From: a virus
Reading direction: 5' to 3' (one strand)
DNA: 64,000 bases
Virus record (IMG/VR): IMGVR_UViG_3300020463_003399
Coordinates: 25,561 to 89,560 of that record
Shown here piece by piece: positions 18,720-45,322 of this stretch. The notes under the pieces are model-generated. The model had not been told where the DNA came from. It did not search any database and was given only the letters and a program-made list of their open reading frames with translations. The translations under genes were made by a program, and so were the position numbers. Positions within the stretch are counted from its first letter, which is position 1, and each line of letters opens with the position of its first letter.

Positions 18720-19850
18720 ATGTCAGTATTCAATTCAGAAAATAAAGCGGATCACACAAAGGCGTTAGCATTTTTGGATCCATCAGGTGGCGTAACTATT
18801 CAAAGATATGATATGCTAAAATATAAACAGTTCGATAAGCTAACTGATAAGCAGTTAGGTTTCTTTTGGAGACCAGAAGAAGTAGATGTTTTAAAAGATG
18901 CAAACGATTTTAAAAATCTAACAGAACATGAAAAACATATCTTTACTTCAAATCTAAAAAGACAAATTCTTTTAGATTCAGTACAAGGTAGAGCACCTGT
19001 TGAGGCATTTTCACCTATTGTTTCTATTCCAGAATTAGAGGCATGGATTCAAACTTGGACATTTAGTGAAACAATTCATTCACGTTCATACACACATATT
19101 ATTCGAAATGTATATGCTGACCCATCAAAAATCTTTGACGAAATGATGGACATTAACGAAATTATGGATTGTGCGGATGATATTTCTAAAAACTACGATG
19201 AATTGATTGAAATGACTAGTTACTTCAATTTATTAGGTGAAGGTACTCATACTGTAAATGGTAAAAAGGTAAAAATATCAAAATACGAAATTAAAAAATC
19301 TCTTTATAAAACTCTTATGAGTGTTAATATTCTTGAAGGTGTTCGTTTTTATGTTTCATTTGCTTGTAGTTGGGCGTTTGCTGAACTTAAGAAAATGGAA
19401 GGTAATGCAAAGATTATTAAACTTATTGCACGTGACGAAAACTTACACTTAGCAAGTACTCAAACACTCTTAAAACTACTTCCAAAAGATGATCCAGATT
19501 ACATCAAAATTGCAAAAGAAACAGAAGAAGAATGTATTAAAATGTTTGTAGATGCAGTAGAACAAGAAAAAGCATGGGCTGAATATCTATTTAAAGATGG
19601 CTCAATGATTGGTCTAAATACGGCACTTTTAAATGAATATATTGAATGGATTTGTTGTAAACGTATGACGGCAATTGGTCTAAAATGTCCATATAAAGTC
19701 ACACAAGCTAACCCATTACCTTGGACACAAAAGTGGATTGCAGGTGCAGAAGTACAAGTTGCTCCTCAAGAGACAGAAATTTCAAGTTATGTTATTGGTG
19801 GTGTAAAACAAGATGTTGATAAAAAGACATTTGGCGGTCTTTCTCTCTAA
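18720..19850 (+). CDS. nrdB: Ribonucleotide reductase class Ia beta subunit
   Basis: FFWRPEE, ETIHSRSY, LEGVRFY, RDENLH, VAPQETE. Confidence 0.97.
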   Translation: MSVFNSENKADHTKALAFLDPSGGVTIQRYDMLKYKQFDKLTDKQLGFFWRPEEVDVLKDANDFKNLTEHEKHIFTSNLKRQILLDSVQGRAPVEAFSPIVSIPELEAWIQTWTFSETIHSRSYTHIIRNVYADPSKIFDEMMDINEIMDCADDISKNYDELIEMTSYFNLLGEGTHTVNGKKVKISKYEIKKSLYKTLMSVNILEGVRFYVSFACSWAFAELKKMEGNAKIIKLIARDENLHLASTQTLLKLLPKDDPDYIKIAKETEEECIKMFVDAVEQEKAWAEYLFKDGSMIGLNTALLNEYIEWICCKRMTAIGLKCPYKVTQANPLPWTQKWIAGAEVQVAPQETEISSYVIGGVKQDVDKKTFGGLSL

Positions 19851-19966
19851 CGAGTCATCTTAATACACAACATTACAAATAAGATTAAACTTATTATTAC
19901 AAGTATTCCCATAGCCATTCCTATGACTAGGGAAAACTGGTCTAAGTGGTTAACAAGATTCGCCAT
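19847..19966 (-). CDS. Unannotated 39-aa single-TM peptide MANLVNHLDQFSLVIGMAMGILVIISLILFVMLCIKMTR
   Basis: Exact TATAAATA (19988-19995, -), SD GGAG, long hydrophobic stretch. Confidence 0.65.
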   Translation of the reverse strand: MANLVNHLDQFSLVIGMAMGILVIISLILFVMLCIKMTR

Positions 19967-20025
19967 ATCCAAGATTCTCCATATCCCTATTTATAAAAGC
20001 TAGGGATTCCAACGAAAATTAAAAC

Positions 20026-20054
20026 TTGACAGATCCTTTGATTTATGATATTCT
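20026..20054 (+). promoter_or_regulatory. Early sigma70 promoter, copy 1 of AAAACTTGACAGA
   Basis: TTGACA-N17-TATTCT with TG; related copies at 20729 and 22111. Confidence 0.75.
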
Positions 20055-20077
20055 ATACCATAAGAAAAGGAGGTACT

Positions 20078-20398
20078 ATGTTTAATTGGTTAAACTTGAG
20101 TACAAAAAAATCTTTTTCACAAGAAAAAGGAGAAACGATGAATACATCAAAACTAACAAAACAAGATAAACTTGTTAATGCTCTTAAAGATGGAGAGGCT
20201 TTAACGGAATCAGCAATGAAACACAGATTTTCTATTGCTAACCCTAGAGCGACAGTATCCGCATTGAGAATGAAAGGATACGCCGTATATGCTAACAAAA
20301 GCAAAAACGGTAAGACTATCTATAGATTAGGAGCTCCTTTAAGAAGAGTCGTAGCCGCAGGTTACAGGGCTCTTGCTGACGAAAAGGTGTTTGGGTAA
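20078..20398 (+). CDS. Winged-HTH DNA-binding protein (starts at 20078 or 20138)
   Basis: LVNALKDGEALT...NPRATVSALRMKGYAVY...YRLG; two SD-ATG pairs. Confidence 0.65.
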   Translation: MFNWLNLSTKKSFSQEKGETMNTSKLTKQDKLVNALKDGEALTESAMKHRFSIANPRATVSALRMKGYAVYANKSKNGKTIYRLGAPLRRVVAAGYRALADEKVFG

Positions 20399-20422
20399 TA
20401 AACATTAACTAAATGAGTCCCT

Positions 20423-20509
20423 GGCCCGGAGACGATATGCCGGATTGGCCTGATTGTCCAATATGCGGTATATCAATCGATGAATGCGAATGTCTCTGGG
20501 CCGGAGACA
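20423..20509 (+). ncRNA. Putative cis-regulatory structured RNA
   Basis: Nested 11-, 9- and 5-bp stems with G.U pairs; alternative hairpin over the SD; GC-rich within an AT-rich genome. Confidence 0.5.
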
Positions 20510-20712
20510 ATTATATGACTAGAAAAATTAAAGTAAAAATTACAGACGATAAAGAGTTCACAGAAGAAAAAGAAGGTTTAGGATTAAAGAAAATATTCAA
20601 ATCTGTATCAGGTTCTGCACCTAAGGGAACAACACACTTAAGAGTAGAATATACTAATAGAAAAGGTACTCCAATTAATCGTTTAGTAAAAATTCCAAAA
20701 AATAAAGACTAA
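20437..20712 (+). CDS. Small basic hypothetical protein; two in-frame starts (20437 with a Cys-rich extension, and 20515)
   Basis: GGAG SD precedes both ATGs. Confidence 0.6.
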   Translation: MPDWPDCPICGISIDECECLWAGDNYMTRKIKVKITDDKEFTEEKEGLGLKKIFKSVSGSAPKGTTHLRVEYTNRKGTPINRLVKIPKNKD

Positions 20713-20728
20713 AAAATAGGCGAAAAAC

Positions 20729-20759
20729 TTGACAGAATCAAGAATCGTGCTATTATAAT
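20729..20759 (+). promoter_or_regulatory. Early sigma70 promoter, copy 2
   Basis: GAAAAACTTGACAGA...GAATCGTGCTATTAT. Confidence 0.75.
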
Positions 20760-20786
20760 TAAGTAATCAAGAGAGAGGTACTTAAT

Positions 20787-21206
20787 ATGGCTTATATTTC
20801 AACTAACGAAGTTAAAGAAGTTCGTAAATCACTTAAAGAAAAGTTCGGTAAAAATCTAAAATTTTCAGTAACACGTGACCATCATTCAAGTGTCAGTGTT
20901 TCTCTCATGGAAGGTGTCATTGATTTCTTTGACGGATCAATGGACATGACCGACAAATATTCAGGGCGAGTTCAAAAGTTTGATGGACATGCTCAAATCA
21001 ATCATTATCATACACATTTCTATGGTAAGCATGAACAGTTATTTAATGACATTAAAGATATTTGTCATACTGCTCCTGCTAAAGCAGAAGGTGGACGAGC
21101 ATATTATAATAACTCAGATGCAATGATTGATTATTTTGATACTGCATTTTACGTGCATATCAATGTTGGTAAATGGAACAAGCCTTACGTTCTTAAGGCG
21201 GCTTAA
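20787..21206 (+). CDS. Early protein, LPD29-like domain
   Basis: VRKSLKEKF..KFSV, DAMIDYFDTAFYVHINVGKW. Confidence 0.55.
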   Translation: MAYISTNEVKEVRKSLKEKFGKNLKFSVTRDHHSSVSVSLMEGVIDFFDGSMDMTDKYSGRVQKFDGHAQINHYHTHFYGKHEQLFNDIKDICHTAPAKAEGGRAYYNNSDAMIDYFDTAFYVHINVGKWNKPYVLKAA

Positions 21207-21232
21207 TCTTAAATCAATAAGGGGATTCAAAA

Positions 21233-21493
21233 ATGAATCTAGCAGTAACTAATACCTTGGAAGGTGCCTTAAAACTCCGGCACCCTGTTTTCGTAACCTA
21301 CCGTGAAGATAATAAAGAAATCGTTGATTGGTATGCATTTGGTGAAGGTCTTGCAAAAGGCTCTGCCGATATGCGTAATGCCAAAGAAGGACCTGACAGT
21401 TATAACTTTACTAGTTGGGAAAAATATGTTATCATACGGGATAATTATAACAAACATATAATGCAATTAGAAGAAATTGAAAGACGTTTATAA
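21233..21493 (+). CDS. Hypothetical protein
   Basis: SD GGGG; ORF. Confidence 0.6.
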   Translation: MNLAVTNTLEGALKLRHPVFVTYREDNKEIVDWYAFGEGLAKGSADMRNAKEGPDSYNFTSWEKYVIIRDNYNKHIMQLEEIERRL

Positions 21494-22101
21494 TGCCAAC
21501 TTATAGAGGTGATACATACTCTAAACCCAGACCTGTTTGTCTGACAAAGGGGTGTACAAATTTAGCACATAATACTGCAAGTGCAGAAAATCCAAGATGG
21601 AGAAAATACTGCGGTACGTGTCATAATGTAAGAAGAAAGAATTTTCAAAGATTATCAGCAAATATAAAAAAGAGTAGTTATCCAACTTGTTGTATAAAAA
21701 ATTGTAGAAAGAAAGTAACTCTAATAGGAACAGACCATAACGGTAATTTGAAGTTTTCTCAATATTGTCAAAAACATGGAGGTACTCCTTATCATCTACA
21801 ATGGAGAAAAACTTATTGTGAGAATATAGATGGAAGACTTGGATTCGTATGCACAACAACTATTCCTTATGATCCGCCACTTCCTGAGAATATCAAATGG
21901 GTAGTAGATTATAGTTATCCACAACCCATGCTAGAAGTAGACCATATAGACGGGAACCCATTTAATGAACCTGTAGATGGCTCTAATTTCCAGACTTTAT
22001 GCTCATGTTGTCATAAGTATAAAACTTGGAAATCTGGTGATGGATTGACCGCAGGTAGAAAAAACATTAAACCAGCAAGTGTAATCGAGAAATTAAATTA
22101 G
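21493..22101 (+). CDS. HNH endonuclease with Cys-rich N-terminal repeats
   Basis: LEVDHIDGNPFN...NFQTLCSCCHKYKT. Confidence 0.8.
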   Translation: MPTYRGDTYSKPRPVCLTKGCTNLAHNTASAENPRWRKYCGTCHNVRRKNFQRLSANIKKSSYPTCCIKNCRKKVTLIGTDHNGNLKFSQYCQKHGGTPYHLQWRKTYCENIDGRLGFVCTTTIPYDPPLPENIKWVVDYSYPQPMLEVDHIDGNPFNEPVDGSNFQTLCSCCHKYKTWKSGDGLTAGRKNIKPASVIEKLN

Positions 22102-22110
22102 GTGAAAAAC

Positions 22111-22138
22111 TTGACAGATTACAGAATCATGATATAGT
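22111..22138 (+). promoter_or_regulatory. Early sigma70 promoter, copy 3
   Basis: GAAAAACTTGACAGA...GAATCATGATATAGT. Confidence 0.75.
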
Positions 22139-22147
22139 GTAAACATA

Positions 22148-23179
22148 ATGATTAAAACGAAAGGTGAGAATATGAGTGAGAATCAGTTCGTAGCACAAAT
22201 CAACAAAGGTTTGTATAGAAATCAAAAAGTAAAAGGTGCGTTTCCAGTTATTTCAGAAATGAAACAAGCTAAGGACGGTAGTTGGTTTATTACTGTCAAT
22301 GCACAGGAAAGCAAATTCAAAAAAGATAAAATTAGGGTTAAAGTAGATCCTGAAAATGTTACAGTTTCAGAAGGTACTGTCGAATCAGTAAATGAAACAG
22401 ATGAACAGGCAATGAATAGGATTGCTGAAAGATTTAAAATCTTAGATGAAATGACCGAGGCAACAATCGATGGTCTTGTTAGAGGCATGGTAGTTTCAGG
22501 CCCTCCAGGTGTTGGTAAAACATTTGGTGTTGAACAAGTTCTTGAAAAAGATTCGTTGTTTGATATGATGGCTGATAAGCCACTAAGGCATACATTCGTA
22601 AAAGGTACAATGTCTGCTATCGGTCTTTATTCAACTCTTTACAAATACTCTGATCCAAAGAGTATTGTGGTACTAGACGATTGTGATAGTATCTTGTTTA
22701 ATGAGGATGCTCTTAATATTCTTAAGGCGGCACTTGATAGTGGTAAGAAGAGGAAGATTTCTTGGAACTCTGACTCACACTTCTTGAGAAGGGAAGGTGT
22801 CCCTGATACTTTTGAGTTCAAAGGTTCAGTTATCTTCATTACAAACTTAAAGTTTGACTATATGAGAGCAACTAAAATCAAGGATCACTTAGAGGCGATT
22901 CTTTCAAGGTGTCACTATCTTGATTTGACAATGGATACTGCTAGAGATAAGATTTTGAGAATCAAGCAGATTGCTAGAGACGGTGGTCTATTTGATACTA
23001 AAGGTCTTACTAAGGATCAAGAAGTTGAAATTATCAACTTTATGGTTGACAATCAAAAGAGACTTAGAGAAGTTTCTTTGAGAATGGCTCAGAAAATTGC
23101 AGACCTTAGAAACATGTCTAAGATGGGTGACAGATGGAAGTCACTTGCAGAGTCAACTTGTATGAAAAGAACTGCATAA
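22148..23179 (+). CDS. AAA+ ATPase
   Basis: GPPGVGKT Walker A, VLDDCD Walker B, IFITN sensor, SRC. Confidence 0.85.
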   Translation: MIKTKGENMSENQFVAQINKGLYRNQKVKGAFPVISEMKQAKDGSWFITVNAQESKFKKDKIRVKVDPENVTVSEGTVESVNETDEQAMNRIAERFKILDEMTEATIDGLVRGMVVSGPPGVGKTFGVEQVLEKDSLFDMMADKPLRHTFVKGTMSAIGLYSTLYKYSDPKSIVVLDDCDSILFNEDALNILKAALDSGKKRKISWNSDSHFLRREGVPDTFEFKGSVIFITNLKFDYMRATKIKDHLEAILSRCHYLDLTMDTARDKILRIKQIARDGGLFDTKGLTKDQEVEIINFMVDNQKRLREVSLRMAQKIADLRNMSKMGDRWKSLAESTCMKRTA

Positions 23180-23221
23180 TAAGGTTAATAAGGTTAGGTA
23201 GGCCAAACGGCCTACTTACAT

Positions 23222-23266
23222 AAGACGGATTGGGTTTCTCTCACTCACCTAATCCGTCTTTTTTTT
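23222..23266 (+). terminator. Intrinsic terminator
   Basis: AAGACGGATTGGGT...ACCTAATCCGTCTT followed by a T run. Confidence 0.85.
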
Positions 23267-23314
23267 ATTTGTAGTGTTGCAATCCCATTTAAATTATGTT
23301 ATAATCTATATATT

Positions 23315-26564: not shown

Positions 26565-26641
26565 GGACCCGTAACTCAGCTGGATAGAGTGCTTGTCTAC
26601 GAAACAAGATGTCGGGAGTTCGAATCTCTCCGGGTCCGCCA
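26565..26641 (+). tRNA. tRNA-Arg (anticodon ACG)
   Basis: GGACCCG/CGGGTCC acceptor stem, D arm, CTTGT-CT ACG AA-ACAAG, GTTCGAATC T loop, encoded CCA. Confidence 0.95.
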
Positions 26642-38283: not shown

Positions 38284-38712
38284 ATGATTAGAGAGACAGA
38301 TTGGTCTAAGAAATTACATTGGACAACAACAGTAAGTGAAAAATTATTATTAGGTGTCGTAGGTACACTAACGATGGTTGCGGCTGGGTTAGACATTTAC
38401 GATATGATAATAGTAAAATTCAAAATTGAACTAGCAGATTTATTTCTGTTATTCATCTATGCAGAGATAGTTGGTATGGTAGGTGCCTTTTACGCAAGTA
38501 ATAGAATACCTGTCACGTTACCAATTATAATTGCAATAACGGCTTTATGTAGATTGATTGTTCTACACAGTAAAGAAGCCGAACCTCTCGTACTTGTTGC
38601 AGAGGCTGGTGCTATTTTAGTATTAGCTGGTGCGGCATATATGATGAGTCTTAAAGATAAACTAAGTCTAGAAAAAGCAGACTTACGAAAAAAGCAAAAG
38701 GTAAAACAATGA
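38284..38712 (+). CDS. psiE: Phosphate-starvation-inducible PsiE family membrane protein
   Basis: DLFLLFIYAEIVGMV, RIPVTLPIIIAITALCR; 4 TM helices. Confidence 0.85.
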   Translation: MIRETDWSKKLHWTTTVSEKLLLGVVGTLTMVAAGLDIYDMIIVKFKIELADLFLLFIYAEIVGMVGAFYASNRIPVTLPIIIAITALCRLIVLHSKEAEPLVLVAEAGAILVLAGAAYMMSLKDKLSLEKADLRKKQKVKQ

Positions 38713-39710: not shown

Positions 39711-40586
39711 GTGTCAAACTTTCCGCAGTTAGACAAGAGTACTATTGTCGAAATAAAGAAAGCAATAGACACGGCTTTTCGTAATTTTGCGAGTAGTTGG
39801 GGAGAGACTCTTACAGATGTTCTCTCTCCAATTCACTGGTTACTAGTTTACCTAGAAAAACTTTTACTTTTTACTCCATGGTATTTGTTTCTATTGCTTG
39901 TTTCTATATTGATATGGTATGTATCTAGAAATTATAAATTAGTAATAGGTTCTATATTAAGTCTTATATGCATAGGATTACTAGGCATGTGGGACGATAC
40001 TATGAGAACACTAAGCATAATTGTTGTTGCTACAACGATTTGTGTTCTTATTGGTATTCCAATTGGCGTATTGATGTATTATAAAAAGAAAGCAGAGAAA
40101 GTTATAACTCCTGTTCTTGATTTAATGCAGACGATACCTAGTTTTGTATATCTAATTCCAGTAGTAATGTTATTTGGTCTTGGAAAGATTCCAGGACTAA
40201 TTGCTATATGTGTATTCTCTATACCTCCAGTAATTAGATTTACAAACCTAGGACTAAAAGAAGTAGACCATGAATTAACAGAATCGGCAGATGCATTGGG
40301 AATGAAATGGTATCAGAAGTTAATTACTATTGAATTGCCTTTAGCAAAGCCTACAATATTTGGTGGCATCAATCAAACAGTTATGATGTCATTAGCAATG
40401 GTTATCATTGCATCAATGATAGGAGTTAGAGGATTAGGTTCACAAGTAATGACAGCCGTAGGAAATGGTTACTTGGGATTAGGACTGATAAGTGGATTGA
40501 GTATAGTTGCATTAGCAATTATAATAGATAGAACGATACAAGAATATAACAAAAGAAAAGATTGGCGAAAGTATGATAGGTCTTGA
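39711..40586 (+). CDS. proW: Glycine betaine ABC permease (ProW)
   Basis: LDLMQTIPSFVYLIP, EAA-like loop ESADALG, GINQTVMMSLAMV. Confidence 0.9.
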   Translation: MSNFPQLDKSTIVEIKKAIDTAFRNFASSWGETLTDVLSPIHWLLVYLEKLLLFTPWYLFLLLVSILIWYVSRNYKLVIGSILSLICIGLLGMWDDTMRTLSIIVVATTICVLIGIPIGVLMYYKKKAEKVITPVLDLMQTIPSFVYLIPVVMLFGLGKIPGLIAICVFSIPPVIRFTNLGLKEVDHELTESADALGMKWYQKLITIELPLAKPTIFGGINQTVMMSLAMVIIASMIGVRGLGSQVMTAVGNGYLGLGLISGLSIVALAIIIDRTIQEYNKRKDWRKYDRS

Positions 40587-45293: not shown

Positions 45294-45322
45294 AAAAGAC
45301 CCTCTAACGAGGGTCTTTTTTT
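45294..45322 (+). terminator. Intrinsic terminator
   Basis: AAAAGACCCTC-TAAC-GAGGGTCTTTT followed by further Ts. Confidence 0.9.

Follow-up and report, generated by a model that had tools for sequence, protein, structure and literature searches.

A coding hairpin around a Cys4 micro-gene of uncultured marine jumbo phages: a candidate translational gate

Which start codons are used, and what does the RNA structure do, where two start sites of one reading frame lie within the reach of a single strong hairpin? The question arises in a stretch of 64 kb (the window) taken from an 89.6-kb IMG/VR virus record. By its genes for a tail sheath protein, a terminase, NrdAB and helicases, the window can be assigned to an AT-rich (34% GC) marine jumbo myovirus. 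Its largest relative is a complete 342.6-kb genome with terminal repeats. The sites CCGGAGACGAT+ATG at 20426-20439 and CCGGAGACAATTAT+ATG at 20501-20517 are present, 78 nt apart and in one frame, and the 26 codons between them encode MPDWPDCPICGISIDECECLWAGDNY, as an earlier note on this DNA had described. That note proposed an isoform switch of the riboswitch or attenuator type, choosing between the two starts by means of two alternative folds (Fold A and Fold B) and possibly sensing cysteine or a metal.

All genes in the neighbourhood of 20413-20712 lie on the + strand. A sigma70-like promoter is predicted at 20026-20054 (TTGACA, 17 nt, TATTCT, with TG; 10 of 12 consensus positions) and would serve a small early-type operon. 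The upstream neighbour is a winged-HTH gene (wHTH, HTH_39; 20079-20398), highly conserved in the relatives and ending with TAA TAA, 14 nt upstream of an ATG at 20413. A second sigma70-like promoter is predicted at 20729-20756 (TTGACA, 16 nt, TATTAT; 11 of 12 positions). Its motif occurs in the relatives as well, and it would mark the end of the 20413-20712 unit. It is followed by an LPD29-domain gene, an HNH gene and an AAA ATPase gene.

The wHTH gene itself has two in-frame starts with strong Shine-Dalgarno boxes, AAGGAGG+ATG at 20079 and AAGGAG+ATG at 20138, separated by 20 codons, and this double layout is kept in the relatives (MFNWLNLSTKKSFS.EKGETM...). In a cDNA contig of a relative, derived from a poly(A) library, the template-switch oligonucleotide directly precedes the position equivalent to 20078, one nucleotide before ATG 20079. 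Possibly an RNA begins at this junction, which lies 24 nt past the predicted -10 box. The A-tail of the same contig (X4 record 9) sits at an internal A-run near 20571.

Relatives of the locus were collected in three scans (21, 34 and 17 loci, about 70 in total) and fall into clades A, B, C and E in addition to the window. The sample is small, as the approximately 70 loci reduce to about 14 distinct versions of the junction in five clades. A blastn search of 19000-22500 against phage GenBank produced matches to nrdB only. In the nearest relatives the wHTH gene is almost 100% identical to that of the window, as against only 72-80% identity in the hairpin region.

The open frame at 20413-20712 (+ strand, 99 aa) consists of a micro-gene and a 65-aa gene (MTRKIKVKITDDKEF..., 20515-20712), with no stop codon in between. 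Its first codon, at 20413-20415, lacks a Shine-Dalgarno box and is directly preceded by an in-frame TAA. The equivalent of this start is conserved, being ATG in the window and in clades A, C and E, and TTG in clade B. The earlier note overlooked it and took ATG 20437 for the first start. However, the combination of SD1 (GGAG) and AUG1 (20428-20439) is specific to the window: at the position of AUG1 the relatives have CTT, TTA, CTC, TTG or GCA, coding for leucine or alanine, and none of them has the GGAG. Since 20413 is conserved and 20437 is not, the former is the start of the micro-gene and the latter a private accident of the window.

The second start proved to be real. ATG 20515 is preceded, 8 nt upstream, by SD2 (GGAG, 20503-20506), and many other phages, as well as clades C and E, have the protein of 63-65 aa that begins there as a cistron of its own. 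Thus ATG 20515 is a genuine ancestral start. The downstream family is widespread in other contexts, as a stand-alone protein of 63-70 aa or 86 aa accompanied by neither the peptide nor the hairpin. Clades A and B share the fused frame of 98-100 aa with the window, and the junction of the two parts spans only about five codons. In clade C the Cys peptide is encoded by a separate 48-aa ORF in a frame different from that of the downstream 63-aa gene; the two overlap by about 30 nt, with a TGA one codon before the downstream ATG. On this arrangement of frames, a long product from 20413 and a short one from 20515 are at least anatomically possible.

Several unusual members of these families were observed. 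In a protein of 141 aa (P0042), an N-terminus similar to GATase (PF00117) precedes the C-terminal two thirds of the 65-aa family. A micro-ORF of 44 aa (P0043) resembles that of clade A, with PHV in place of PWP, and is unfused by a 2-nt change of frame. In a 242-kb phage of the IMGVR_UViG_3300020477_000008 type, the intergenic region ahead of the stand-alone 65-aa gene (L074:600-800) has a structured GC-rich element of a different kind, GACCCC...GGGGTG...CCCCC followed by TTTTT.

The micro-gene is enclosed in a hairpin at 20417-20508. Its predicted folding energy is -47.4 kcal/mol (126 nt folded; z -5.24), and none of 200 dinucleotide shuffles was as stable. It is the most stable 120-nt segment of the 64 kb, the mean of such segments being -19.6 and the standard deviation 5.8. 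The minimum free energy structure coincides with Fold A, pairing 20421-20433 with 20492-20504 and 20434-20442 with 20466-20474, all at pair probabilities of 0.99-1.0. SD1 and AUG1 are completely buried in it (probability of being unpaired 0.00), as had been predicted. On the other hand, Fold A does not free SD2, contrary to the earlier note: G20503, G20504 and G20506-C20508 are paired, and the mean probability of being unpaired over the GGAG is 0.25. AUG2 at 20515 remains open (0.84-0.90). The inner helix of 9 bp (20434-20474) is in its longer form specific to the window, and in the relatives its place is taken by a shorter CCA/UGG helix. Compared with its nearest relatives, the window has one extra glycine codon and several other changes, which together lengthen the helix to approximately 25 bp.

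The two-state switch between ATG 20437 and ATG 20515, sensing cysteine or a metal, is a natural reading of the window taken alone, as both GGAGAC-ATG sites and both folds are indeed there. The Fold B hairpin, UGUCUC/GAGACA, exists and has an energy of -8.8 kcal/mol by itself. However, any structure that contains it lies at least 14.3 kcal/mol above the minimum, its pair probability is 0.0, and clades A and C either lack it or form it only weakly. SD1 and AUG 20437 are missing from all relatives, the interior of the hairpin evolves as a protein, and the Rfam scan of the window at the gathering threshold yielded only a tRNA at 26565. Nothing points to sensing of cysteine or metal by the RNA, whose interior codes for a peptide. 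The riboswitch or attenuator interpretation is therefore scarcely credible.

The two near-identical start sites can be explained otherwise. Since the region of the 3' arm is a near-palindrome whose left half has to pair with the 5' arm, the 5' arm resembles the right half, including the GGAGAC. A 20-nt direct repeat follows from the same constraint on the arms. This locus serves as a caution that neat "switches" with two Shine-Dalgarno boxes can be by-products of a near-palindromic arm. A motif search of the window and four related genomes found no further copies of the arms. As these are single-copy, a repeated mobile element was rejected. Programmed bypass of the kind known from T4 gene 60 was also considered and rejected. 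The GGA...GGA pair, 75 nt apart, is found in the window only and no stop codon follows, and the would-be gap is under purifying selection at the protein level.

The closing stem is common to all variants folded, with energies from -35 to -47 kcal/mol. In each of them, 0-4 nt separate the start codon of the micro-gene from the stem, which ends 5 nt before the downstream ATG in the fused clades and 22 nt before it in clades C and E. The 5' arm (20417-20433) codes for S-P-W-P-G-D with rare codons (CCC, CCC), and the 3' arm (20492-20508), which overlaps SD2, for (C)-L-W-A-G-D with rare CTC and GCC. The codons found in the arms are avoided by the phage elsewhere: CCC accounts for 3% of proline, GCC for 6% of alanine, AGG for 4% of arginine, GGG for 3% of glycine and CTC for 2% of leucine codons. 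The native fold is more stable than synonymous recodings, both with phage codon usage (z -2.3 to -6.4) and with matched GC content (z -1.4 to -4.5). In the window none of 300 recodings reached the native stability in either control.

The changes between clades also bear on the level of selection. The 3' arm is kept while encoding W-A-R-D in clades A and B and W-P-G-Q in clade C. The stem ends at its foot in two pairs, which in clade C read UG/CA; in clades A and B, as in the window, they read GU/AC. In one variant (L057) a C-G pair was replaced by G-U through a synonymous change of a proline codon together with loss of the otherwise invariant Trp29, and in the window an inner A-U pair became G-C via two synonymous changes. 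The G-U pairs point to the + strand RNA as the selected form. On the other hand, the stem is weakened by AGG>AGA in clade B and by CCA>CCU in two variants of clade C, and the independent compensatory events are few, given about 14 distinct sequences in five clades. Judged from its protein (MSPHV..., 44 aa), P0043 also seems to alter the 5' arm. The contest between covariation and codon conservation that the earlier note had proposed thus gave a few compensatory pairs and some weakening changes in the stem, and coding selection in the interior.

The interior is coding sequence under purifying selection, as the pN/pS ratio of the peptide is 0.05-0.45 across clades (pN 0.11-0.25; pS 0.6-1.0, which is near saturation). 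A structured non-coding RNA that happens to be in frame, the fallback of the earlier note, does not agree with this. By these alignments, the arms of the hairpin are selected at the nucleotide level and its interior at the protein level, and both the closing stem and the Cys motif have been conserved. The absence of both from the relatives, which the earlier note had named as speaking against its reading, is not what the relatives display.

One possibility is that the inverted repeat acts in DNA, by recombination, deletion or cruciform formation, or that it is a by-product of the residues PWP ... W-A/P-R/G. The arms do share a core, TGGCCA/CCWGG, that is palindromic, they also form short direct repeats, and in clade E the interior is cleanly replaced. 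However, the G-U pairs and the C-G to G-U change of L057 are functional in + strand RNA only, and the element is single-copy in each genome. A purely protein-level cause is excluded by the rare codons and the synonymous-recoding test, and the 3' arm has been kept across the W-A-R-D and W-P-G-Q coding. This explanation is very unlikely. A DNA inversion cassette was rejected on the same evidence.

Clade E has only 6 nt where the others carry the 72-nt Cys-coding loop. It thus retains a plain GC stem-loop of 8 bp with the same start codon, and the frame stays open over 26 codons (at least 8 contigs, whose flanks are about 85% identical to clade C). It follows that the stem persists independently of the domain. 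This comparison suggests that the micro-domain could be gained or lost between the arms as a cassette, leaving the gate proposed below undisturbed. The state in clade E may be either a loss of the loop, which is the simplest by parsimony, or the older state, as these phages are mosaic.

A stem that is kept whatever the loop encodes, and that in clade E is a plain 8-bp stem-loop, might serve the mRNA and not its translation. The hairpin would then follow the wHTH gene as an element of stability, processing or insulation, by stopping exonucleases, by offering an RNase site, or as a weak pause site or terminator; the micro-gene would merely occupy its loop, and any effect on translation would be secondary. 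Distant relatives of the wHTH gene (L047-L056) indeed have a terminator, formed by a GC hairpin and a U-run, at the same place. However, no lineage has a U-run after the stem, although the phage uses U-run terminators elsewhere, and the RNA contigs described below read through the hairpin, which is weak evidence. Moreover, in most clades RNase III would need a longer stem than the 8-12 bp present, and the stem always lies 0-4 nt past a start codon, which a pure 3'-end element would not need. We regard this role as unlikely. An intrinsic terminator in the strict sense was rejected, as there is no U-run 3' of the stem in any clade.

The canonical terminators of the window are of a different type. 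At 23195-23270, after the AAA ATPase gene, there are GC hairpins in tandem, and eight U come after the second; a GACCCUC...GAGGGUC stem at 45295-45322 is followed by seven U. The L047-L056 loci, whose wHTH homologues are distant (40-46% identity), contain GAGGAGGC-GCAAT-GCCTCCTC and TCTTT about 30 nt past the wHTH stop, and then an unrelated gene. This terminator occupies the position that the hairpin has in the clade of the window.

A reading to which we assign an even chance is that the hairpin acts as a constitutive translational gate on a frame derived from two cistrons, and not as a ligand switch. The frame at 20413-20712 is built from two ancestral cistrons, a micro-gene of about 34 codons and a gene of 65 codons, and the first and last codons of the micro-gene themselves form the arms of the hairpin in the + strand mRNA. 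According to the model, at equilibrium the closed hairpin would shut the start of the micro-gene, which has no Shine-Dalgarno box, in all lineages, and the internal start (20515) in the fused lineages, including the window. Initiation of the micro-gene or the fusion would then be limited to the short interval before the 3' arm is transcribed. An alternative entry would be by ribosomes handed on from the wHTH gene, whose stop is 8-14 nt upstream. The output of the micro-gene would be low and tied to upstream expression.

The model of a gate derives from the high opening cost of the first start, its lack of a Shine-Dalgarno box and its position 8-14 nt past the wHTH stop. Opening the region from -13 to +15 of the first start is predicted to cost 13-22 kcal/mol in all lineages (21.8 kcal/mol for 20413 in the window). 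For the second start the cost is 10-16 kcal/mol in the fused lineages versus 3-6 kcal/mol in the unfused ones (9.7 kcal/mol for 20515 in the window). In clades C and E the downstream start is open, so that a gate on the second start is not part of the conserved function. Metatranscriptome contigs of a relative similar to clade B bridge the wHTH gene, the hairpin and the downstream gene, although these are assembled contigs only and therefore weak evidence.

The manner of entry deserves a comment. The wHTH frame halts 8-14 nt before the micro-gene start and never enters the stem, in which start 20413 is buried. A ribosome at the wHTH stop ends several nucleotides short of the stem, and thus simple coupling by unfolding is not applicable. 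Hand-over from the wHTH gene would need a scanning ribosome able to melt the GC stem. The micro-gene frame runs across the second start only in so far as both belong to the same ORF.

The fused lineages allow a more elaborate version, in which the hairpin blocks 20413 and leaves 20515 partly usable. Here translation of the wHTH gene, or the time spent as nascent RNA, would set the proportion of the 99-aa and 65-aa forms: ribosome traffic from the wHTH gene would open the stem and yield the long form, the ratio would follow upstream translation and not a ligand, and the coding loop would be a swappable cassette. Every fused variant keeps at its junction the ancestral methionine and a purine-rich run similar to a Shine-Dalgarno box, the best of these boxes being that of the window (GGAG with an 8-nt spacer). 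The openness of AUG 20515 and its lower opening cost compared to 20413 agree with this. However, 10-16 kcal/mol in the fused clades is still high. Further, an occupied 5' arm would leave the 3' arm free to fold on itself over SD2 as the Fold B hairpin, and the evidence from the junction, one retained methionine codon and five codons, is weak. We thus consider such setting of isoforms doubtful.

Control of this kind is already known in phages, both of the T4 gene 49 type and in the form of coupling hairpins. Gene 49 of T4 (endonuclease VII) reportedly produces nested in-frame proteins, a hairpin hiding the first ribosome site in the long early transcripts; the work is said to be that of Barth and co-authors in 1988. 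A late promoter inside the structure gives rise to transcripts without the 5' arm. The locus described here is similar in that there are two in-frame starts (20413 and 20515), the upstream one lies in a stable stem, and the proposed control is structural and not based on a ligand. It differs in that the two parts are separate genes in sister clades. On the + strand, no conserved internal promoter site was found within the hairpin, TATAAATG occurring only in some variants of clade A, and the T4-type late promoter motif TATAAATA is not enriched in the window.

Kinetic gating is also known at the start of the MS2 maturation gene. In the locus considered here, too, a buried start would be reached through ribosomes of the upstream frame or through unfolded nascent RNA. 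Coupling or occlusion by mRNA structure has been described for genes VII/IX of phage f1 and for the coat and lysis genes of MS2/fr, and the unfolding and scanning models of translational coupling have been reviewed (PMC12548453). With a distance of 8-14 nt from stop to start, the locus resembles these systems. However, the complementary arm lies outside the upstream wHTH gene, pairing is with a coding segment about 75-90 nt downstream, and the whole enclosed segment encodes a putative folded micro-domain. If either the gate or the setting of isoforms is true, structural control of nested proteins of the T4 type would extend to marine jumbo phages.

The micro-protein family itself is new. The core of the peptide is encoded at 20440-20499 (PDW.DC(15)P.C(18)G...DEC(25).C(27).W), with cysteine codons at 20455, 20464, 20485 and 20491. 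Fifteen residues are invariant in the alignment: P3, W4, P5, P10, D11, W12, D14, C15, C18, G19, D23, E24, C25, C27 and W29. The peptide ..LPDW.DCP(I/L)CG.., with its four invariant cysteines, aligns with the rubredoxin knuckle (CPxCG), and its profile has a weak, motif-level match (E 0.0025) to the knuckle EELPDDWVCPICGAPKSE. Rubredoxin, however, has two CxxCG knuckles in a fold of about 50 aa, whereas the peptide has one CPxCG and, six residues later, CxC; it has 34-48 aa and is very acidic. Identity with rubredoxin (PF00301) was rejected, as there is no Pfam match, the CPxCG is single and the second cysteine pair is CxC. The peptide (about 34 codons, similar to a rubredoxin knuckle) is probably metal-binding.

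The family is confined to this clade of uncultured marine phages of about 340 kb and is single-copy in each genome. Searches of Pfam (E<=0.01) and PHROGs with the 99-aa ORF gave no match. A profile search of 1.84 billion representatives retrieved two real relatives (P0001 and P0043) together with long repetitive proteins. In the ESM Atlas, residues 1-34 matched only unnamed small viral clusters, the best score being 0.90. The AlphaFold2 model of the 99-aa protein, based on an alignment of 33 rows, has a pLDDT of 59.7, which is too poor for a fold search.

The family has been caught both split from its neighbour gene and fused to it. As in Rosetta stone pairs, where fusion or fission links two proteins, the products are overlapping cistrons in clade C and share one frame in clades A and B and in the window. 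This suggests that the peptide and the 65-aa protein may act together. Prediction of their complex gave a score of 0.02, which was counted neither for nor against binding. One stretch of approximately 90 nt is under double selection, its loop as a micro-protein and its translated arms as an RNA stem, and in one lineage the stem is present without the coding loop.

Other structured regions were observed in the window. The segment 38400-38720 (320 nt, -89.9 kcal/mol), just upstream of an ORF starting at 38709, contains several long helices and is among the most structured parts of the window. The longest inverted repeat of the window is at 40137-40252 and has arms of 28 nt, 82% complementary, which are 60 nt apart.
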